DNA of 64,000 nt from Scenedesmus sp. PABB004 (GCA_014905635.1 JABVCE010000008.1:1178001-1242000), one strand, 5' to 3'. Shown: positions 35,765-44,278, numbered from the stretch's first letter. Made by a program: numbers and translations. The notes: generated by a model from the letters alone, not told the origin.

Positions 35765-38700
35765 ATGAGACGGAGACACCTGCCCGCCGCCGGCGCGGCC
35801 GCGGCGTGCCTGCTGCTGGTCGCCGCGTGCGTGCAGGGCGATGCCGGCGCCGGCGCCGGCCCGGCCGCTGAGGCCGCTGCCGCGGCCTGCCGGACTGGCT
35901 ACGTCGCTTCAGGCACAAGCTGCGGTGAGGGGCCCGCGTCAGCAGCGGCGCGCAGGCCTCCTGGGGGCGGCGGCGGCAGCGCAGCCTGGCGGCAGCGGGG
36001 CGCGCTGCTAGCTCGGCCGTGCAGCCGCAGCCACAGCGCCGCTCGTGGGCCTGCGCGGCTGCACCGCCGCGGCCAGCAGCATGGGCGAGCAGCCGGCGCA
36101 GCGGCGGCGGCGCGGGCAGCGGCAGCGCTGCTGCTCCCGTGGTGACGCCGCGGGCGGCGCAGCAGAGCGGCGTGCCCGCGGGCCGGCCCCGGTGGAGCTT
36201 CGAGGGGGAAGGCTCGGGGCCGCGCGGCCGCGGCGTTGGGGTCCTCACGACAACCGCCGGCGCTGCGCCCCCGCAGCGTGCGCGCCGGGCTGGGGCTCGC
36301 ACGTGCCCGGCTGGCCCAACGCGACCTACCCGACGCTCCCGCCGACCTGCGCGCTGTTCCGGCCGGGCAAGGACAAGCTGTACAAGGAGGGCACGGTCTT
36401 CCCGCCCGCCGGCGCGGGCAAGGGCAAGTGCTTCTGCTTCGCCTGCCCGCCCGGCTACACCTCGGCCGGCGGCCGCCTGAGCCAGGCGGACGCGGCGTGC
36501 AGGGCGGCGCCGACGCTGAGCCTGGTGGCAACGTACACGATCGACACGAGCGGCGTGCTGTGCGACGCCAAGGTCAACGCGGCGGTGGGCGCCAAGCTGC
36601 GCGTGGCGCTCAAGCGCGCGGCCAAGGTCGACGCGCAGCTCGTGGCCGCGGACTGCCCCGACCCGCCGGTGCGTCCCACGGGGCTTGCGCGGCAGATCTG
36701 CGTGCGCGGCCCCCACGGCAACGCCGCTGCCGACGCCGCTGCCGACGCCCGCGCCGCAGGCGGGCGTGTCTGGTGGCGCCGGGCCGGCCAGCCACAAGCT
36801 GGTGCTGCGGCTGTCCTACACGGGCACGGACGCGCAGAAGCGGCTCAAGCAGTTTGGCGGCGTGGCGCGGAAGATCAACGCGCCGTCCAGCCAGACGGCC
36901 GGCAAGTGCGCGTTTGGCGTGTGCAACGCTGTGAAGCAGGCCTCACGCGGCGCAGCGAGCGTGGCCGTCGCGAGCGCAGAGGTGGCGTCGACGCTGTCCG
37001 GGCCCTCGCCGTCGCCCGCGCCGCAGCAGGGTGCGCCGCGCGGCGCGCAGCAGGCGCGGCCGCCGCGCCTGGGCGTGTGCTCGCACTGTGCCCACGTGCC
37101 ACCGCCCGCTGCCGCGCCTCGCGCCGCAGGCTGCCGGGACACCGGCTGCGAGTCCCGGGCCTGCCAGACCAGCAAGTGCGACGCGGCGAGCGGCAAGTGC
37201 AGCTATTCCAACCTGGCCAACGGCACCGCCTGCGACGACGGCGCCGTGAGCGGGCAGTGCGCGTCGGGCACGTGCGTGGGGCTCAATGCCAACATCGAGG
37301 CCGCCGCACAGGGCGTGACGGAGCCCGTGATCTTCAAGGCGCGCTTTGCCGGCGGCGGCGCGGGCGTTGGCACGGCGGTGACGCTGAACGGCGTGCGCAA
37401 CGGCAGCGACGCCGGCGAGGTGCTCGGCACGCTCTACGACGACGGCAGCCGCTTGCACGAGGACCGCTTTGCCGGCGACGGCGTGTTCTCCAACATCATC
37501 CTTCTCACCTTTGCCGAGAGCGACCAGCCCGTGTACAAGGCGTTCTACGTCTCCCTCCAGGGCGCCGCCGGCCGCAGCGCGCCCGTGGGCATCGCCGCCG
37601 TCACGACGCGCATCGACACGCTGCTGGAGCTGTTCCCCACCGAGCAGCTCGTCACGACGGCGCAGGCGCGCGTGGCGGAGCTCGTCGACGCGGGCGCCAG
37701 CCCCGAGGCGGCCATCGCGGCGATCTATGACCTCCTCATCGAGTACAGCGTGGTCGGCGGCGGCGGGCGGCGCCGCGCGGCGGCGGCCGCGGCGCCGCAG
37801 GAGGCGGCGGCCAGCGTCAACCTGACCTCCATTCTGTCGCGCGTGGACGCGTCGACGGTCACGCGCGTGAGCGAGCGGCGCGTGGAGTTCAAGACGCTCG
37901 AGGGCTTCCCCTGCATGGTGCTGGCGCTGCCAGAGTACGGCGACCGCCTGAGCGGCGGCAAGTGCGGCGACGGGGGCGGCGCACGGCGCCGGCTGCTGCA
38001 GCTCGGTCCTCAGCCGCGCGCGCGGGCCGCGGGGACGAGCGCGCGCGCTGTCGGCGGCCTGGCGGCCACCATCGCGCTCCAGCTGCAGCGCGACGCTGAT
38101 GCTGGCGCCCCGCCGGCGGCCGCGGCGACCCCCGAGGCGCCCAGCTTTGCCAGCCTTGCGCACGGCGCCGCGAGCCGGCGGCGGCTGCAGCAGGCGCAGC
38201 AGTGCCCCACGTCCAAGGGCGCGGTGCTGGTGCTGGCGCCGTTCCTTGTCGAGAACGAGTGCACCACCTTTGGCGACGAGGCGGACGCGGTGGCCGCGCT
38301 CTACCGGGCGGCCGGGTACGACGTGACGTTCAAGTGCAACGACGCCGCGCTGTGCCCGGCCGGCCCGCCGGCGCTGGAGGACTTCACGGGCTGGTCCAAG
38401 TACGCGGCGGTCGTGGTGTCGAGCCGCGGCGACGACGACGCCGGCGGCAATAGCCCCGTGCTGCTCACGCGCGCGCCGATCGACCTGGATCGCTATCAGC
38501 TGGACTGGCAGGCGGGGCGCGTCGTGCTGACCTCGGACGGCCTCGCCGCGCTGCGGCCGAGCTGGTTTGCCAAGTACCGCGACGCGGCCGGTGCCGAGCC
38601 GGCGCGCACCGTCGTCTACTTTTCGTCCGACTTCTCCGCGGTCTCGCCGCCCGCGTCGGCGCAGGACGGCGTGGAGGAGAAGGGCTTTGCCGCCGCGTTC

Positions 38701-41700
38701 TGGTCCATGGACGGCGCCACCAGCTACGCCGGCTTTACCGGCGCGCTGTCGCGCAGCTTTGACGCGCCCTCGCCCGGCGTCGCGATGGCGCGGCACCTGC
38801 TTGCCGGCGGCACCGTGGAGAGCTACGCCGGCACGGGCGGCCGCGACAAGCTGACGGGCGCGGCGTTCCGCTCGTACGCGTATCGCCGCACGTCGACGCT
38901 GCTCGACCGCTGCGCGTTCAAGTGCGAGCGTGTGACGTGCAGCCCGCCCCAGTGCGCGCTGAGCGAGGTCGTCTGCAACACCCTGACCGGCACGTGCGAC
39001 GTGAGCTGCTGCGACAAGAAGGACGGCGACGCCTGCCGCCTGCGCGGCCGCGGCAGCACGTGCCGCGCCGGCAAGTGCATCGGTGAGCGGCGCGGCGGCG
39101 AGCGCTCAAGCGGCACGGCGCTGCGCAGCGGCCGGGCTCGAGTGCCCCGCGGCGTTGGCTGACATTGCCGCCGACCGCCTCTGCTGCCGCGCCGCAGACA
39201 AGTGCGCCAGCGCGCTGTGCTCCGCGCCGCCGTGCCAGGAGCTTGTGGGGCAGGACGGCGCCATCTGCAACCCCGCGACTGGCGCCTGCCGCACCAACAA
39301 CCTGCCGGACGGCACCAGCTGCAGTTTCCAGGGTGGCGGCGGCCGCTGCGTCGCTGGCGCGTGCAAGGGTGCGGCGCCGCCGGCGCCGCTGCGCGTGCGG
39401 CCGCCGCCAGCTTGTCTCACGCCCGTCCGTGCCCACCCTGCCCCCGCGCCCTGCCGCCAGGCCTGGTCTCGCTGTTCTATCGGCTGCGCGGCCCCGCCAG
39501 CAGCTTCCCCGCGACGTTCGACGCCGCCGCGCTGACCGCGTTTGCTTCCGGCGTGGCCGGCTCACTGGACTTGCCATCCACTTACCCCACGTCGCGCATC
39601 AGCGTGTCGGTGCTGCAGCCGCCGCAGCGCGCAGCGCGCGCCGCGCCCGCAGAGGAGGGCGCCACCGCGCGGCTGACTGCGGAGCTGCTGGACGACCCGC
39701 CGCTGCCTCTCAACATGAACTTCCGCGTGCTGGGCACGGCGGCAAAGCTGCAGCTCGGGGAGCCGTTTGGCCCCGGGCTGACCGTCGAGCGCACGGACGC
39801 GGGTGGCAACGTGCTGGACTCGACGACGAGCAACAGCGCAGGTGGGGCGGCAGACTGCCCGCGGCTGCCTGCGAGCGCTACCTGTGCGCCGGTGGCGCGC
39901 CATTGACACGCTCGCGGTCACCCCCTCACCGCCGCCCGCTGCCCCCAGACCTGTGCAAGTACAAGGTCTGCACGCCGGCGGACGAGTGCAGCACGGCGAG
40001 CTGCGTGCCCGCCACGGGCAGCTGCGCCAGCACGCCCGTCAACGAGGGCGGCGCCTGCGGCACCAACGGCACCTGCACCGCCGGCAAGTGTGTCGTGGCG
40101 TCAGTCGAGCCCAAGGAAGAAGACCCGTGTGCCGCCAACCCCTGCTCCAGCGTGGCCAACGCTGTGCCGAGCTCGTGCGTCCGCACCGATGCCAACGCCT
40201 CGCTCGCCGCCTCTTTCCGCTGCAGCTGCGAGACCGGCTACAGCTGGGCAGGTGGCAAGTGTGGCGGTGAGGCGGCGCAGTCAGCGAGGGGACTGGCGCC
40301 AGCAGCAGCCAGAGGCGTCGCGTGCCGCACGCGCCCAGGCATGATCGGGCTGGCTTTGACTGCGCCGCCGCTGCCGGCCGGCCGGCCCGCAGACACGAAC
40401 GGCTGCCTCGGCAGCCCCTGCGCGAGCATTGCTGGCGCGCTGGCGGACGGCTGCCAGGACGTGCCGGCCCCGCAAACTGGCTTCACGTGCCGCTGCGAGG
40501 CCTCCTCTGTGTGGCGGGCCGCCACCTCCTCCTGCGTTGGTGCGGCGGCAGGCGCCCGCACCCACGGCGCCGCCCGCCGGCCCCTGGGCGCTCGCAGCAC
40601 GCTGCCAGCCGCTGCAGCTGACGTGCGCCGGCTGCCCTGCCTTCTGCTCCGCCGCAGCGCGCTGCGCCAACGTCACGTGCGTGAGCACCGAGTGCAGGGC
40701 GGGCAGCTGCAACGCCACTGCGGGCGCATGCGTCTTCACCAACGCTGCCGACGGCATCGCGTGCACACCTCAGCCCAGCGCGCGCCGGCGGCGGCCGGCT
40801 GCGGGCGGCTCGGGCGTGTGCCAAGCGGGCGTGTGCAAGGGTGAGCAGGGGGTGCGCTCGGCGCGCGTTGGTTGCCGAGGGGCTGCTCCCGTTGCTCACG
40901 CCGCCGCTCACGCCGCCGCCCGCGCCGCGGCACTAGACCTCTGTGCCAACGTCACCTGCGCGCCTGAGCTCTGCCGCGTGGCGACGTGCAACGCGGCCAA
41001 CGGTGCCTGCACCTACGCCGACGTGGCGTATGGGACGCCCTGCACGCTTGGTGGCGCTGGCGGCTTCTGCTCGTTTGGCAGCTGCACGCTGCCAAGTGCG
41101 CGGCGGCGCGCTGCCGGCGCGGTGCAGCGCATGCCGCCCGCGCACGGCAGCCAGGCGTGTGCGTCCTGCCCTCACTCGCTGCCGCGCGCCGCCGCAGACC
41201 CGTGCGCCGGCGTGACGTGCACGCCGGGCGCCTGCCAGACGGGAGGCTCCTGCAGCAACGGCGTTTGCAGCTTTGGCGCGGCGCCCAACGGCGCCGCGTG
41301 CACCCTGGGCGGCGGCGGCGCCGGCGTCTGCGTGCTCAGCGGCGCCAGCAGCGTGTGCACAGGTGCGGGGAGCCGCCTGGTGCAGCAGCAGGCCCCGCTG
41401 GCAGCTGCCGGCGCCACCACGACACCTCACCGTGCCCCGCTCCGCCCTGCGGCTGCGCCGCGCCAGACCCGTGCGCCGGCGTGAATTGCACCTCCACCCC
41501 CAGCAGCACCTGCCAGATTCCTGGCTCGGCCACATGCAGCGCCGGCGCGTGCTCTTTCACCAACAGGCCGGCCGGCACGGGCTGCGCGCTCGCGGACGGC
41601 CGCTACGGCACCTGCACAGCCGGCGGCACCTGCGCGGGTGCGCTGCGCCCTCGCGCTGAACCACCAGCGCCACCGGCCGGCGGCGCCCGCACGGCGCGTG

Positions 41701-44278
41701 TTGTAGTCGCCGCCGACGACACCGCTGCCGCCGTCCTGCGCGCAGAGGTGGTTGTCCAGCGCGTGCGCATCACGTCCCCCGCCAACTACACGCCGGTCGC
41801 GGTGGCCGCGGGCGCGAGCGGCACCGTGTACTTCACCACGCGCGACAACTGCGTGGGCAAGGTGCTGTCGACAGCGCTCAGCGGCACGGCGGGCGTGTCG
41901 CTTGCGACGGTGGACATCTTGGCAGACTTGCAGGGAGAGGCTGGCATCCAGGCCGACTCCCTGGCGGGGCTGGCCGTGGACGAGGCTGGCGGCTGGCTCT
42001 ACATCGCCGACAGAAGTGCGGCGCCGCGCAGCCGCGCTGCTGCGTCGGGCGCACCCGTATGCCGCGTGGGCGGCCGCGCACGCCGCCGCCCGTCCTGTCG
42101 CCCACGCCGCGCTGCGCACGCGCTGCCCGCAGGCCTGCACTGCGTGCGCAAGATGTCACTCACGTCGTCCACAGTGTCCACCGTCCTGGGGCAGTGCAGC
42201 GCCACCAACGCCTGCGCCTCATCCGTCTGCGGCGGCTCGTCATCTGCGCCGGGCGTGGCTGCGTCAGCAGTCTCGCTCTTTCGCCCTTCGTCGGTCGCGC
42301 TCGCCCCGGGGGGCGCCGGCAGCGTGCTGCTCGTCGCCGACGCGGGCAACAACTGCGTGCGCCAGCACAACCTCACATCAGATTTGGTGGTTGACGTGCT
42401 GGGCGTCTGCAACGGAACTTCGAGCGTTGTGACCTTCCCTAACCTCAGGCGCTACACCGTCGGCTCTGATCCGTCGCAGAACACCTGGTGGGCGGCGATC
42501 ACGAACGACGGAACCGGCATCAGCAACATTGACAACATCGGCGGCGGCGCGTACGAGCGCTACACTGGGGCGGGCACGAGCACCTCCTCCGGCAGCGGCG
42601 ACCTGCGCACCTGGGCCCGGACCGGCAAGCTCTCCATAAGCAACCCCGTCATCGAGGTCAACCTCATCGCCTCGGCAGCGCTGACTGGCGGCGGGCTGGC
42701 GTTTGGGTCCGACCGCGTCATCGCAAGCTCCTTCCCATCCCCCTACAGGGAAAACATGCGGTCGCACTCGCTGCTGGTCGTGCCCGACCCGGCTGGCGCG
42801 CCGACGGACGGGACCCTGCTCGTGCCCCTGGACGGCGGCGGGGGCGCGGGCGGGCCGCTGGACCCGCTGCTGACGCGCGTGGGCGGCCTGGCCGCGGTCA
42901 ACGGCACGCTGTGGGTCTCCGACGGCGCCAACGACAACCTCGTGCCGGGCCAGTTCACGCTGCTGCGCCCTGATGCGATGCCGGCGGTGCCAGCCTACTT
43001 CCGGGGCGGCGCGGTCTTTGCCGGAGCAAAGCACACCTGCGGCGTGCCGGCGCGCGGCGCGGCGGCCGGCAGCGCGCCCGTCTGCTGGGGCGACGGTGGC
43101 GCCGCGGTGCTCACGCCGCCCGCCATGCTCCTTCCGTCATCGTATGGGATCGTTGGCGCGGCCGGCGGGTCCCACACCTGCATCGCAGCGAAGATAGAGT
43201 CGGTGCGGGTCTGGGCGCGCGCAACCTTGGCAGGCCGGGCCCAGCGCATGCGCCTCTGGCTCACGCCTCCGCCTGCCCGCCCTGCCGTGCCCGCCCTGCC
43301 GTGCCCGCAGGTGGCACCAGGCCTGGCCTGCTGGGTGAGCTTGTCCAGTGGCAGCGCGCTGCGCTGCCTCCTGTTCCGCTGCCCTGCAGCCTCCCTCCGA
43401 CGCCCTCGCTGAGCGCTGACCGCGCGCGTGCGCACGCGCAGGGCGACAACTCCACCGGCCAGCTCGCGGTGCCAAGCGACGTGGCCAGCATAGCATACAA
43501 GTACGCGATGTGCGCGGGGACGTACCACACGTGTGCGCTGGTCATGGACAACAGCTACGCCATGCGCATCGCCTGCTGGGGCTGCGAGCCGGGCAACGCG
43601 CTGTGCGACTACGTGAACAATAACAGCACGGTCAACGTTGACCTCGCGGCCGCGGCAATCAACGAGCCCGGCGCCCTGTCGTGCGGGCCGCGCCACCTGT
43701 GCGTGATGTCGAGTACTGGCGGAGCCATCAACTCCGGCCACCCCTGGTACAACACCGTCGTCTGCTTTGACGGCTCAGGCTCAAGCTGTGGGCCGCAGTG
43801 CGACACGCCCCCCACCTTCACCTGGCCCTTCAGCGGCGCGCGGGTCATGGCCACCAGTGCACGGCACACGTGCGCTGCAAGTGGGCAGCAGATTTTCGAG
43901 TGCTGGCCGGCCAGTGAGCCCGCCGCGAACACGACGGACATCGCCGAGCAGGCATGGTATCCCGACCAGATTTGCGTGGGCGACGACTTTACGTGCGGGC
44001 TGTTCCGGTCCACCTCCAGCATGAGCAACCCCACGAGAACGTATGCGCTGCGCTGCTGGCCGGACAGCGTGCTGGCCCTGCCGCCGGGCCTGAGCGGGAT
44101 GGCGGCGACGGCGGCCAACGTCACCTCCATCACCTGCGGGCGGCAGCACATGTGCGCCACCAAGGGCGGCGGCGCGACGGTGTGCATCGGCGCCAACGCC
44201 GGCGCTGGCTGCCTTGATGGCCGCTGCAACGTGCCCGTCGCGGACCGCACAAAGTGGCCCTTCCGGCCCGACCCGTGA
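35765..44278 (+). CDS. Large secreted multidomain protein: choice-of-anchor-X-like Ig, clan-CD peptidase-like domain, Cys-rich and EGF-like repeats, NHL-like and RCC1/BLIP-II-like repeats (16 exons)
   Basis: Signal peptide MRRRHLPAAGAAAACLLLVAACVQG. Fifteen GT-AG introns trace in frame to the TGA at 44276-44278. Motifs: LYDDG..DRFAGDGVFS; CxxVTC..C..G.C repeats; GLAVD..LYIAD and LLVADAGNNCVR; AG..HTC..CWG repeats. Confidence 0.8.

Follow-up and report, generated by a model that had tools for sequence, protein, structure and literature searches.

A predicted CHAT-like caspase-fold domain without its catalytic dyad in a giant, putatively secreted protein of Scenedesmus

The stretch of DNA considered here (the window) comprises 64,000 nucleotides from the green alga Scenedesmus sp. 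PABB004 (GCA_014905635.1 JABVCE010000008.1:1178001-1242000) and contains the gene HT031_003234, the product of which is annotated as a 2087-amino-acid "hypothetical protein HT031_003234" (P0053). The largest exon of this gene encodes a domain that is predicted to have the fold of clan CD peptidases, with CHAT domains as its nearest structural neighbors, and that carries Arg and Asp in the alignment columns of the catalytic His and Cys. Upstream of the domain lies a segment bearing a choice-of-anchor-X acidic motif, and both parts have relatives in bacteria. The features on which the following account relies are listed below, with residues numbered in the exon product.

35765..44275, + strand: whole gene HT031_003234 of Scenedesmus sp. 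PABB004, placed by 100% identity to P0053, tblastn and the start of a paralog
37130..39082, + strand: uninterrupted 1953-bp exon of 651 codons (P0001), acceptor ending in cag before the first G and donor G followed by gtgagc, codon frame from 37132
37132..37281, + strand: N-terminal Cys-rich module, residues 1-50, recognized by its Cys-spacing pattern
37282..37620, + strand: choice-of-anchor-X motif segment, residues 51-163, from a sub-cut-off match to NF041940 and BLASTP to P0048
37432..37494, + strand: core of the motif, L101-N121, with LYDDGS from 37432
37621..37941, + strand: conserved middle region, residues 164-270, ending in a short conserved stretch, from identity to paralogs and alignments
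37942..38181, + strand: low-complexity Ala/Arg/Gly-rich linker, residues 271-350, of lowest conservation
38203..38910, + strand: predicted CHAT-like caspase-fold (clan CD) pseudopeptidase domain, residues 358-593, from AlphaFold2, VIA-align and Foldseek
from 38410, + strand: motif VVVSSRG, read from the sequence
38425..38427, + strand: codon CGC of Arg432, in the column of the catalytic His, from the sequence and the family alignment
from 38611, + strand: motif VVYFSSDFS, read from the sequence
38629..38631, + strand: codon GAC of Asp500, in the column of the catalytic Cys, from the sequence and the family alignment
from 38686, + strand: motif FAAAFW, read from the sequence
from 38713, + strand: motif GATSYAGF, read from the sequence
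38911..39082, + strand: C-terminal Cys-rich modules, running on into the next exons, from the translation

The exon pieces of P0053, which in a profile search was 100% identical over the query, could be placed at 35837-44275 on the + strand by ungapped tblastn, and its residues 258-908 correspond to 37129-39081 with a 100% match. At least ten further exon pieces belong to the same gene model, making HT031_003234 intron-dense. An earlier, sequence-only reading of the window had described an uninterrupted 1.95-kb exon at 37130-39082 in an otherwise intron-dense gene; the splice sites, the match to P0053 and the mapped exon pieces confirm this description, and every motif coordinate given in that reading proved exact when the sequence was read again.

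The G+C content of the window is approximately 78% throughout, and the reading is open in all six frames. With every frame open at such a composition, the length of an open reading frame (ORF) is no proof of coding. An antisense ORF of 720 amino acids (36943-39105, minus strand) spans the entire exon and is an artefact of composition: by the G+C content at third codon positions (GC3; 0.948 in the exon compared with 0.737 overall) the coding frame is the + frame from 37132, which is further supported by 59-85% protein identity to paralogs and to the proteins of Tetradesmus obliquus. As long chance open frames occur in all six frames at 78% G+C, the exon could in principle be a composition-driven open frame, a decaying pseudogene or bacterial contamination. 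This is hardly credible, given the complete match to an annotated protein, the canonical splice sites, the GC3 of 0.95 in the coding frame and the lack of frameshifts relative to the paralogs (85% identity) or T. obliquus (59-63%). The gene is intron-bearing and resides on a contig of 1.46 Mb, and the T. obliquus homolog on one of 4.4 Mb; introns and megabase contigs in two genera exclude contamination.

The fold of residues 351-600 was predicted using AlphaFold2 with a 48-sequence alignment (A1), yielding a model with a predicted local distance difference test score (pLDDT) of 89.0, a predicted template-modelling score of 0.88 and 169 of the 250 residues at 90 or above; a single-sequence AlphaFold prediction of the domain was unusable (pLDDT 35.5). 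In a comparison of the model with 48,161 representatives of the PDB by VIA-align, the first rank was taken by SAVED-CHAT (8tl0; Z 14.2, 185 residues aligned, root-mean-square deviation 3.6) and the second by the CHAT domain of DdvA (8rot; Z 12.7, 175 residues aligned, root-mean-square deviation 3.9). Metacaspase 4 (Z 12.1), legumain (11.9), RgpB (11.4), GPI transamidase (11.1) and separase (11.0) scored lower, and Kgp (10.5), c-FLIP (3h13; 9.0) and Raptor (5wbi; 7.7) lower still; MALT1, caspases and Craspase were also matched. Judged by their titles, 32 of the 33 rows at Z >= 7.9 are clan CD, the title of the remaining one (3bij) naming no family, and unrelated Rossmann-like folds start near Z 7. 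The top rows of a Foldseek search against the PDB were weak but are caspase-3, Craspase and MALT1, with E-values of 1.2e-3 to 2.3e-3, and CED-3. Residues 351-600 are thereby confidently predicted to adopt the caspase-haemoglobinase (clan CD) fold, nearest to the CHAT domains, and the clan CD, caspase- or gingipain-like fold proposed from the sequence alone is what the AlphaFold and VIA-align results show.

When residues 351-600 were searched with phmmer against 1.84 billion representative proteins, including the NCBI proteins, 50 matches at E <= 0.001 were obtained and 48 of them were kept as the family. The two proteins dropped, P0043 and P0049, are NHL-repeat proteins in which only a piece of 30-40 residues was matched repeatedly. 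The Pfam models gave nothing meaningful on the exon product, the CHAT model (PF12770) does not match the window domain itself, and the Peptidase_C25 (PF01364) and C13 models have no sequence match, the likeness to C25 being one of fold only (Z 10.5-11.4). In a language-model look-up, residues 350-600 had weak leads (0.89-0.91) to Peptidase_C25 clusters, DUF6345 and CHAT, a cluster with Peptidase_C25 in 29% of its members scoring 0.90; the upstream region had no usable match in the look-up. By structure, the closest neighbors are CHAT domains (ranks 1 and 2 of the 48,161 chains). The window domain has the clan CD fold and lacks the clan CD His-Gly/Cys dyad; on the predicted model it would be a structural homolog of clan CD and a pseudopeptidase, not a catalytic member. 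Judged by the profile searches, it belongs to a small, previously undescribed CHAT-like family outside the current Pfam and NCBIfam models.

In the family alignment the S-S-R-G of the window is aligned with S-S-H-G-D and its F-S-S-D-F-S with F-S-A-C-R-S, so both stretches sit on the dyad columns, and the sequence-only reading, which had Arg (CGC at 38425) at the His position and Asp (38629) at the Cys position, agrees with the relatives. Both catalytic columns are covered by 36 sequences: 27 have His/Cys, eight have Asp together with a residue other than His, and one, P0044, has Ala/Pro. Taken separately, the first column holds His in all of 25 dyad-bearing members and in none of the 21 members of the dyad-less clade described below, which have a mixture of residues there (V 7, I 6, R 5, then A, L and T). 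The second holds Cys in all of 24 dyad-bearing members and in none of 13 dyad-less ones, all 13 of which have Asp. Conservation of 80% or more among the dyad-bearing members is seen in 35 columns; the dyad-less clade holds 22 of these at that level, and only the His and Cys columns are not retained in it at all. Arg432 is residue 82 of the model and follows the strand 76-80 by two residues; Asp500, residue 150 of the model, follows the strand 144-148 in the same way. This is the placement described for the dyad of the CHAT domain of DdvA, H862/C907, which lies on strand-end loops (PMC11506125). Six further homologs from the phylum of the Planctomycetaceae metagenome-assembled genome (MAG) have His-Gly and Cys in every case. 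This loss of the dyad columns within a conserved fold supports the pseudoprotease proposed earlier. The bacterial-type P0044, where the dyad is independently lost (Ala, Pro), is a second pseudoenzyme in the family.

The Asp that replaces Cys in 13 of 13 dyad-less sequences has flanks similar to those of the Cys (mostly D-R-S compared with C-R-S), conservation within the protein is highest in the domain, and the domain has further conserved Cys and His residues. These features would also be expected if the domain were still an enzyme, using a non-canonical chemistry in which the Asp served as nucleophile, acid or metal ligand, or in which a Cys/His pair had been relocated. Such an enzyme is very improbable, as the His column provides no consistent general base; moreover, the other conserved Cys residues, C358 for example, are equally conserved in dyad-bearing members and so look structural rather than like a relocated nucleophile. 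To our knowledge, there is no clan CD peptidase with an Asp nucleophile.

The history of the pseudopeptidase was approached with a maximum-likelihood tree built from 37 domain sequences, for which a row had to span 120 or more profile positions from the N-terminal side; P0059, which has the same length as P0018 and falls in its 90%-identity cluster, was left out as redundant. The 11 dyad-less rows of the algal type form one clade (support 97 in the Shimodaira-Hasegawa-like approximate likelihood ratio test), which takes in all five named Scenedesmaceae proteins, two of them from T. obliquus. The bacterial-type group has a support of 90-94. The dyad state needs only two changes on the tree, P0044 being the second, and the dyad is by this tree lost once in the algal lineage; an examination of the algal paralogs revealed no dyad-intact one from any named alga. 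The tree is unrooted and gives no resolved order among the dyad-less clade, the bacterial-type group and the remaining dyad-bearing fragments.

A comparison of Scenedesmus with T. obliquus gives 61% identity for the domain, against 33-45% for the other aligned regions and 20% for the linker; relative to the paralogs, the domain reaches 84-85%. The linker (residues 531-614 of P0053) is the least conserved part also among the paralogs (55-56%). The middle region (residues 164-270), the presumed helical linker of the sequence-only reading, shares 85-86% identity with the paralogs and 39% with T. obliquus, and its counterpart in bacterial members aligns with it (alignments A2 and A4). By these identities, constraint within the protein is strongest on the domain, apparently long after the loss of the dyad.

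The acidic motif of the window covers positions 2-22 of the 37-position NF041940 model. The choice_anch_X hidden Markov model (HMM) matches nine of 18 family proteins at E <= 0.05, P0044 alone being above the cut-off (25.9 compared with 25 bits), and wherever the motif is matched it is found 157-273 amino acids upstream of the caspase-like domain. Across 13 aligned members the acidic pattern D-D-G ... D ... A-G-D-G-aromatic-S/T-N is maintained: D104 and D111 never vary, and conservation is 90% or more at L101, D103, G105, D116 and N121, which suggests that the conserved acidic positions form a metal-binding loop. BLASTP of the exon product against P0048, a protein of an uncultured Planctomycetaceae bacterium, gave two collinear segments, one bearing the motif (38% identity, E 7e-9) and the other being the caspase-like domain (30% identity, E 3e-13). 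As the motif segment and the domain are collinear in the bacterial relative, algae and bacteria share the whole module and not the protease fold alone. The choice-of-anchor-X motif of the sequence-only reading, which placed it in a putatively Ig-like segment, is thus real, conserved and collinear in bacteria, although the score of the window copy falls below the HMM cut-off; the homologous segment of P0044 passes that of NF041940. A complex prediction of the upstream region with the caspase-like domain, made without alignments, scored 0.02 against a mark of 0.34. In P0057 of T. obliquus the motif (residues approximately 355-375) is shortened and degraded. The pseudopeptidase domain of P0057 has kept its 61% identity, so that in algae the constraint on the motif segment seems to differ from that on the domain. 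A full-text literature search found no paper on "choice-of-anchor X".

The protein looks secreted and extracellular, as can be inferred from its N-terminus. The annotated N-terminus of HT031_003234 is short and without a signal peptide. An in-frame Met at 35765 opens a basic-then-hydrophobic leader that is signal-like as judged by eye; this leader can be aligned with the start of the paralog HT031_004572, and the alignment with the paralog P0003 begins at 35765 as well. The annotated first exon (around 35765-35940) is therefore probably wrong and the true start would be 35765. Signal-like N-termini are found at the in-frame start of the window gene, in the paralog P0003 and in P0057 of T. obliquus (hydrophobic), and P0058 of T. 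obliquus has a Sushi domain. Several PABB004 proteins are listed in passages of a cell-wall proteomics study (PMC11839794) in which no entry for HT031_003234 was recognized. The C-terminal third of the gene (41466-44275) encodes NHL-like repeats (PF01436, 22.9 bits with a cut-off of 20), to which RCC1-like repeats are added in the paralogs; both are probably beta-propellers. Identity between the paralogs in this third is 42-45%, far below that of the pseudopeptidase module.

In the mechanism that we propose, the choice-of-anchor-X acidic-motif segment, the conserved middle region and the CHAT-like caspase-fold domain would constitute one module. The bacterial members and some presumably intron-bearing eukaryotic members have the His-Gly/Cys dyad and would presumably be secreted cysteine peptidases. 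In the Scenedesmaceae lineage both catalytic residues would have been replaced once, His by a variable residue (Arg here) and Cys by an invariant Asp, and the remaining scaffold would have stayed under strong constraint. The former substrate cleft could then be retained as a non-cleaving protein- or peptide-binding module, its host being a giant secreted matrix or cell-wall protein with Cys-rich EGF-like modules and NHL-like and RCC1-like repeats. With both catalytic residues lost and the scaffold strongly constrained, a pseudopeptidase is the best-supported mechanism. We infer that the window domain is inactive as a peptidase and that binding is its most likely role, and we regard it as quite probable that this conserved module of a putatively secreted algal protein is a pseudopeptidase which serves, most likely, in non-cleaving binding. 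A binding or decoy role had also been suggested in the sequence-only reading.

Several results weigh against this proposal. None of the 48 family members reaches the cut-off of any Pfam model. The CHAT model (PF12770) matches two of the 48 at E <= 1, the best being P0048 with 21.1 bits (cut-off 24, E 2.3e-4) in a stretch that covers the dyad region; Peptidase_C14 (PF00656) also matches two of the 48, with a best E-value of 0.047, below its cut-off, and with structural Z-scores of 9-12. Foldseek retrieved nothing from the PDB at E <= 0.001, and the template-modelling scores were 0.2-0.44. Sequence searches of the PDB with the exon product and with the A1 profile returned no clan CD chain; including the A4 upstream profile, such searches gave chance-level matches only (scFv, Tie2 and coiled coils, E >= 0.057). 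The sole NCBIfam match of the window, NF041940 at residues 100-122 (E 0.009), has 15.7 bits and so stays under the cut-off of 25. The placement of Arg432 and Asp500 at the dyad positions is derived from the family alignment and from the strand positions of the model. Finally, the invariant Asp (13 of 13) could retain a chemical role rather than reflect simple inactivation.

Among the characterized systems, CHAT (SAVED-CHAT 8tl0, the anti-sigma factor DdvA 8rot and TPR-CHAT/Csx29 of Craspase) provides the best structural matches to the window domain. As in CHAT, two consecutive core strands are followed by the His-Gly and the Cys, respectively, in the dyad-bearing members of the family. Unlike the CHAT systems, the family of the window domain is without a TPR or SAVED partner domain, is predicted to be extracellular and is linked with a choice-of-anchor-X segment, and the window copy is without both dyad residues. 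The gingipains (C25) have the same fold and are secreted with accessory beta-rich domains, as the family members would be, and legumain and GPI transamidase (C13) also share the fold; however, neither C25 nor C13 gives a sequence-model match, and their structural scores are lower than those of CHAT. A caspase fold that is kept under selection without its dyad is also seen in the protease-like domain of c-FLIP, in the caspase-like domain of Raptor and in the pseudo-orthocaspases. These belong to a different family and have different substitutions, whereas the domain described here has a variable residue together with Asp, in a putatively extracellular, multi-domain algal setting. c-FLIP pairs with caspase-8, while the window domain has no known partner protease. 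The bacterial pseudo-orthocaspases are described as having Tyr and Ser at the His and Cys positions (PMC6426788).

Where the algal module came from is less clear. In Scenedesmus sp. PABB004 the family includes the paralogs HT031_004572 and HT031_004575, which have 85% identity and are located on another contig, and in T. obliquus P0057 and P0058, with 63% and 59% identity. These two algae are the only named eukaryotes found with the family, 30 of the matches of the scan having been traced to their source. On the bacterial side, the family profile had matches in seven of 401 genomes of the phylum of the Planctomycetaceae MAG, and a locus search with P0048 found only its own contig. A metagenome scan with alignment A3 produced three loci with 31% identity over 59 residues, none of which matches the A1 profile HMM, and they were rejected as spurious. 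The bacterial-type members have varied architectures, including RTX repeats, FG-GAP, CARDB, the LEPR-XLL signal and choice-of-anchor L. A family sparse in bacteria and found in two Scenedesmaceae among named eukaryotes fits inter-domain transfer, and the 1.84-billion scan gave no broad, vertical distribution of homologs in eukaryotes. The GC3 of the exon (0.95) is near that of the neighboring exons (0.88-0.99) and leaves no compositional trace of transfer; with a composition equal to that of its neighbors, any transfer must be old. The tree, with no order in its backbone, gives no direction of transfer. The horizontal acquisition suggested in the sequence-only reading has therefore gained from the sparse distribution and the homology to a bacterial module, but not as to its direction, and a bacterial origin of the algal module is plausible.

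A further set of sequences complicates this picture. Eleven dyad-bearing fragments, nine of them clusters (P0016, P0018, P0020, P0022, P0023, P0024, P0030, P0034 and P0038) and two of them cluster members (P0059 and P0060), all terminate directly behind the Cys-Arg of the active site; at the same point P0026 reads on into unrelated sequence. The shared stop after Cys-Arg points to a conserved intron, the first in-frame codon of which is a stop, and thus to exons of eukaryotic genes; the simplest reading is that the fragments derive from intron-bearing eukaryotic genes with intact dyads. The window gene has no intron behind the position of the active-site Cys. A single clade of these fragments with the dyad-less clade is not rejected by the approximately unbiased (AU) test (p 0.145), the group having been chosen after seeing the tree.

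Such putative eukaryotic genes with intact dyads and a conserved intron, together with the AU result, the unrooted tree without backbone resolution and the neighbor-like GC3 of the exon, are what would be expected had the module never been acquired from bacteria, the family being instead an ancient eukaryotic one with widespread loss or one that bacteria took from eukaryotes. We think this the less likely history, though one that deserves serious consideration. The two Scenedesmaceae are the only named eukaryotes in the scan, the varied architectures of the bacterial members have typically bacterial parts, and NF041940 was built for bacterial and archaeal proteins; the matches in seven of 401 genomes make the family sparse on both sides.

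Uptake of a bacterial surface domain by algae has a precedent in the diatom Trailins, secreted matrix or adhesive proteins into which a bacterial Choice-of-Anchor-A domain is reported to have been taken by horizontal transfer (bioRxiv 10.1101/2023.03.06.531300). The Trailins differ from the window protein in having Choice-of-Anchor-A and not choice-of-anchor-X, in belonging to another algal group and in having no protease-fold domain. A more far-reaching scenario, speculative and on balance rather doubtful, is that the whole bacterial protease module entered the chlorophytes, where it persists with intact dyads in some intron-bearing genes, and that in the coenobium-forming Scenedesmaceae, through the fixation of Asp in place of Cys, it became a ligand receptor that no longer cleaves, within a giant matrix protein. 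If so, the receptor could serve in cell-cell or cell-wall adhesion or in the trapping of foreign proteins, and the invariant Asp would stand for a gained binding function beyond the loss of catalysis.

Pseudo-caspases and the algal uptake of bacterial surface domains are already known, and the present finding extends rather than overturns this knowledge. What appears to be new is a CHAT-like clan CD family that is missed by current models and is sparse in bacteria and green algae, and within it a monophyletic algal branch of pseudoenzymes. One scaffold with and without the dyad offers a natural experiment that could show what a caspase fold does after the cutting stops. For Scenedesmus and Tetradesmus, algae of biotechnological use, the domain would also provide the first functional handle on giant secreted proteins annotated as "hypothetical".

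Some minor observations concern the parts that flank the module. Five Cys-rich modules of approximately 40 residues with regular Cys/Gly spacing are located at 37147-37260, 39969-40091, 40957-41070, 41203-41331 and 41487-41615; they have no Pfam or NCBIfam match at the thresholds used, and the N-terminal Cys-rich module is likewise without a match to any Pfam or NCBIfam family. The relative P0005 has the identical Cys spacing after the caspase-like domain. In L003-L008, P0014, P0017 and P0048 the caspase-like domain is followed on its C-terminal side by another conserved domain, which has acidic Gly-rich motifs, and the algal proteins have Cys-rich modules where the bacterial-type members have this extra domain.

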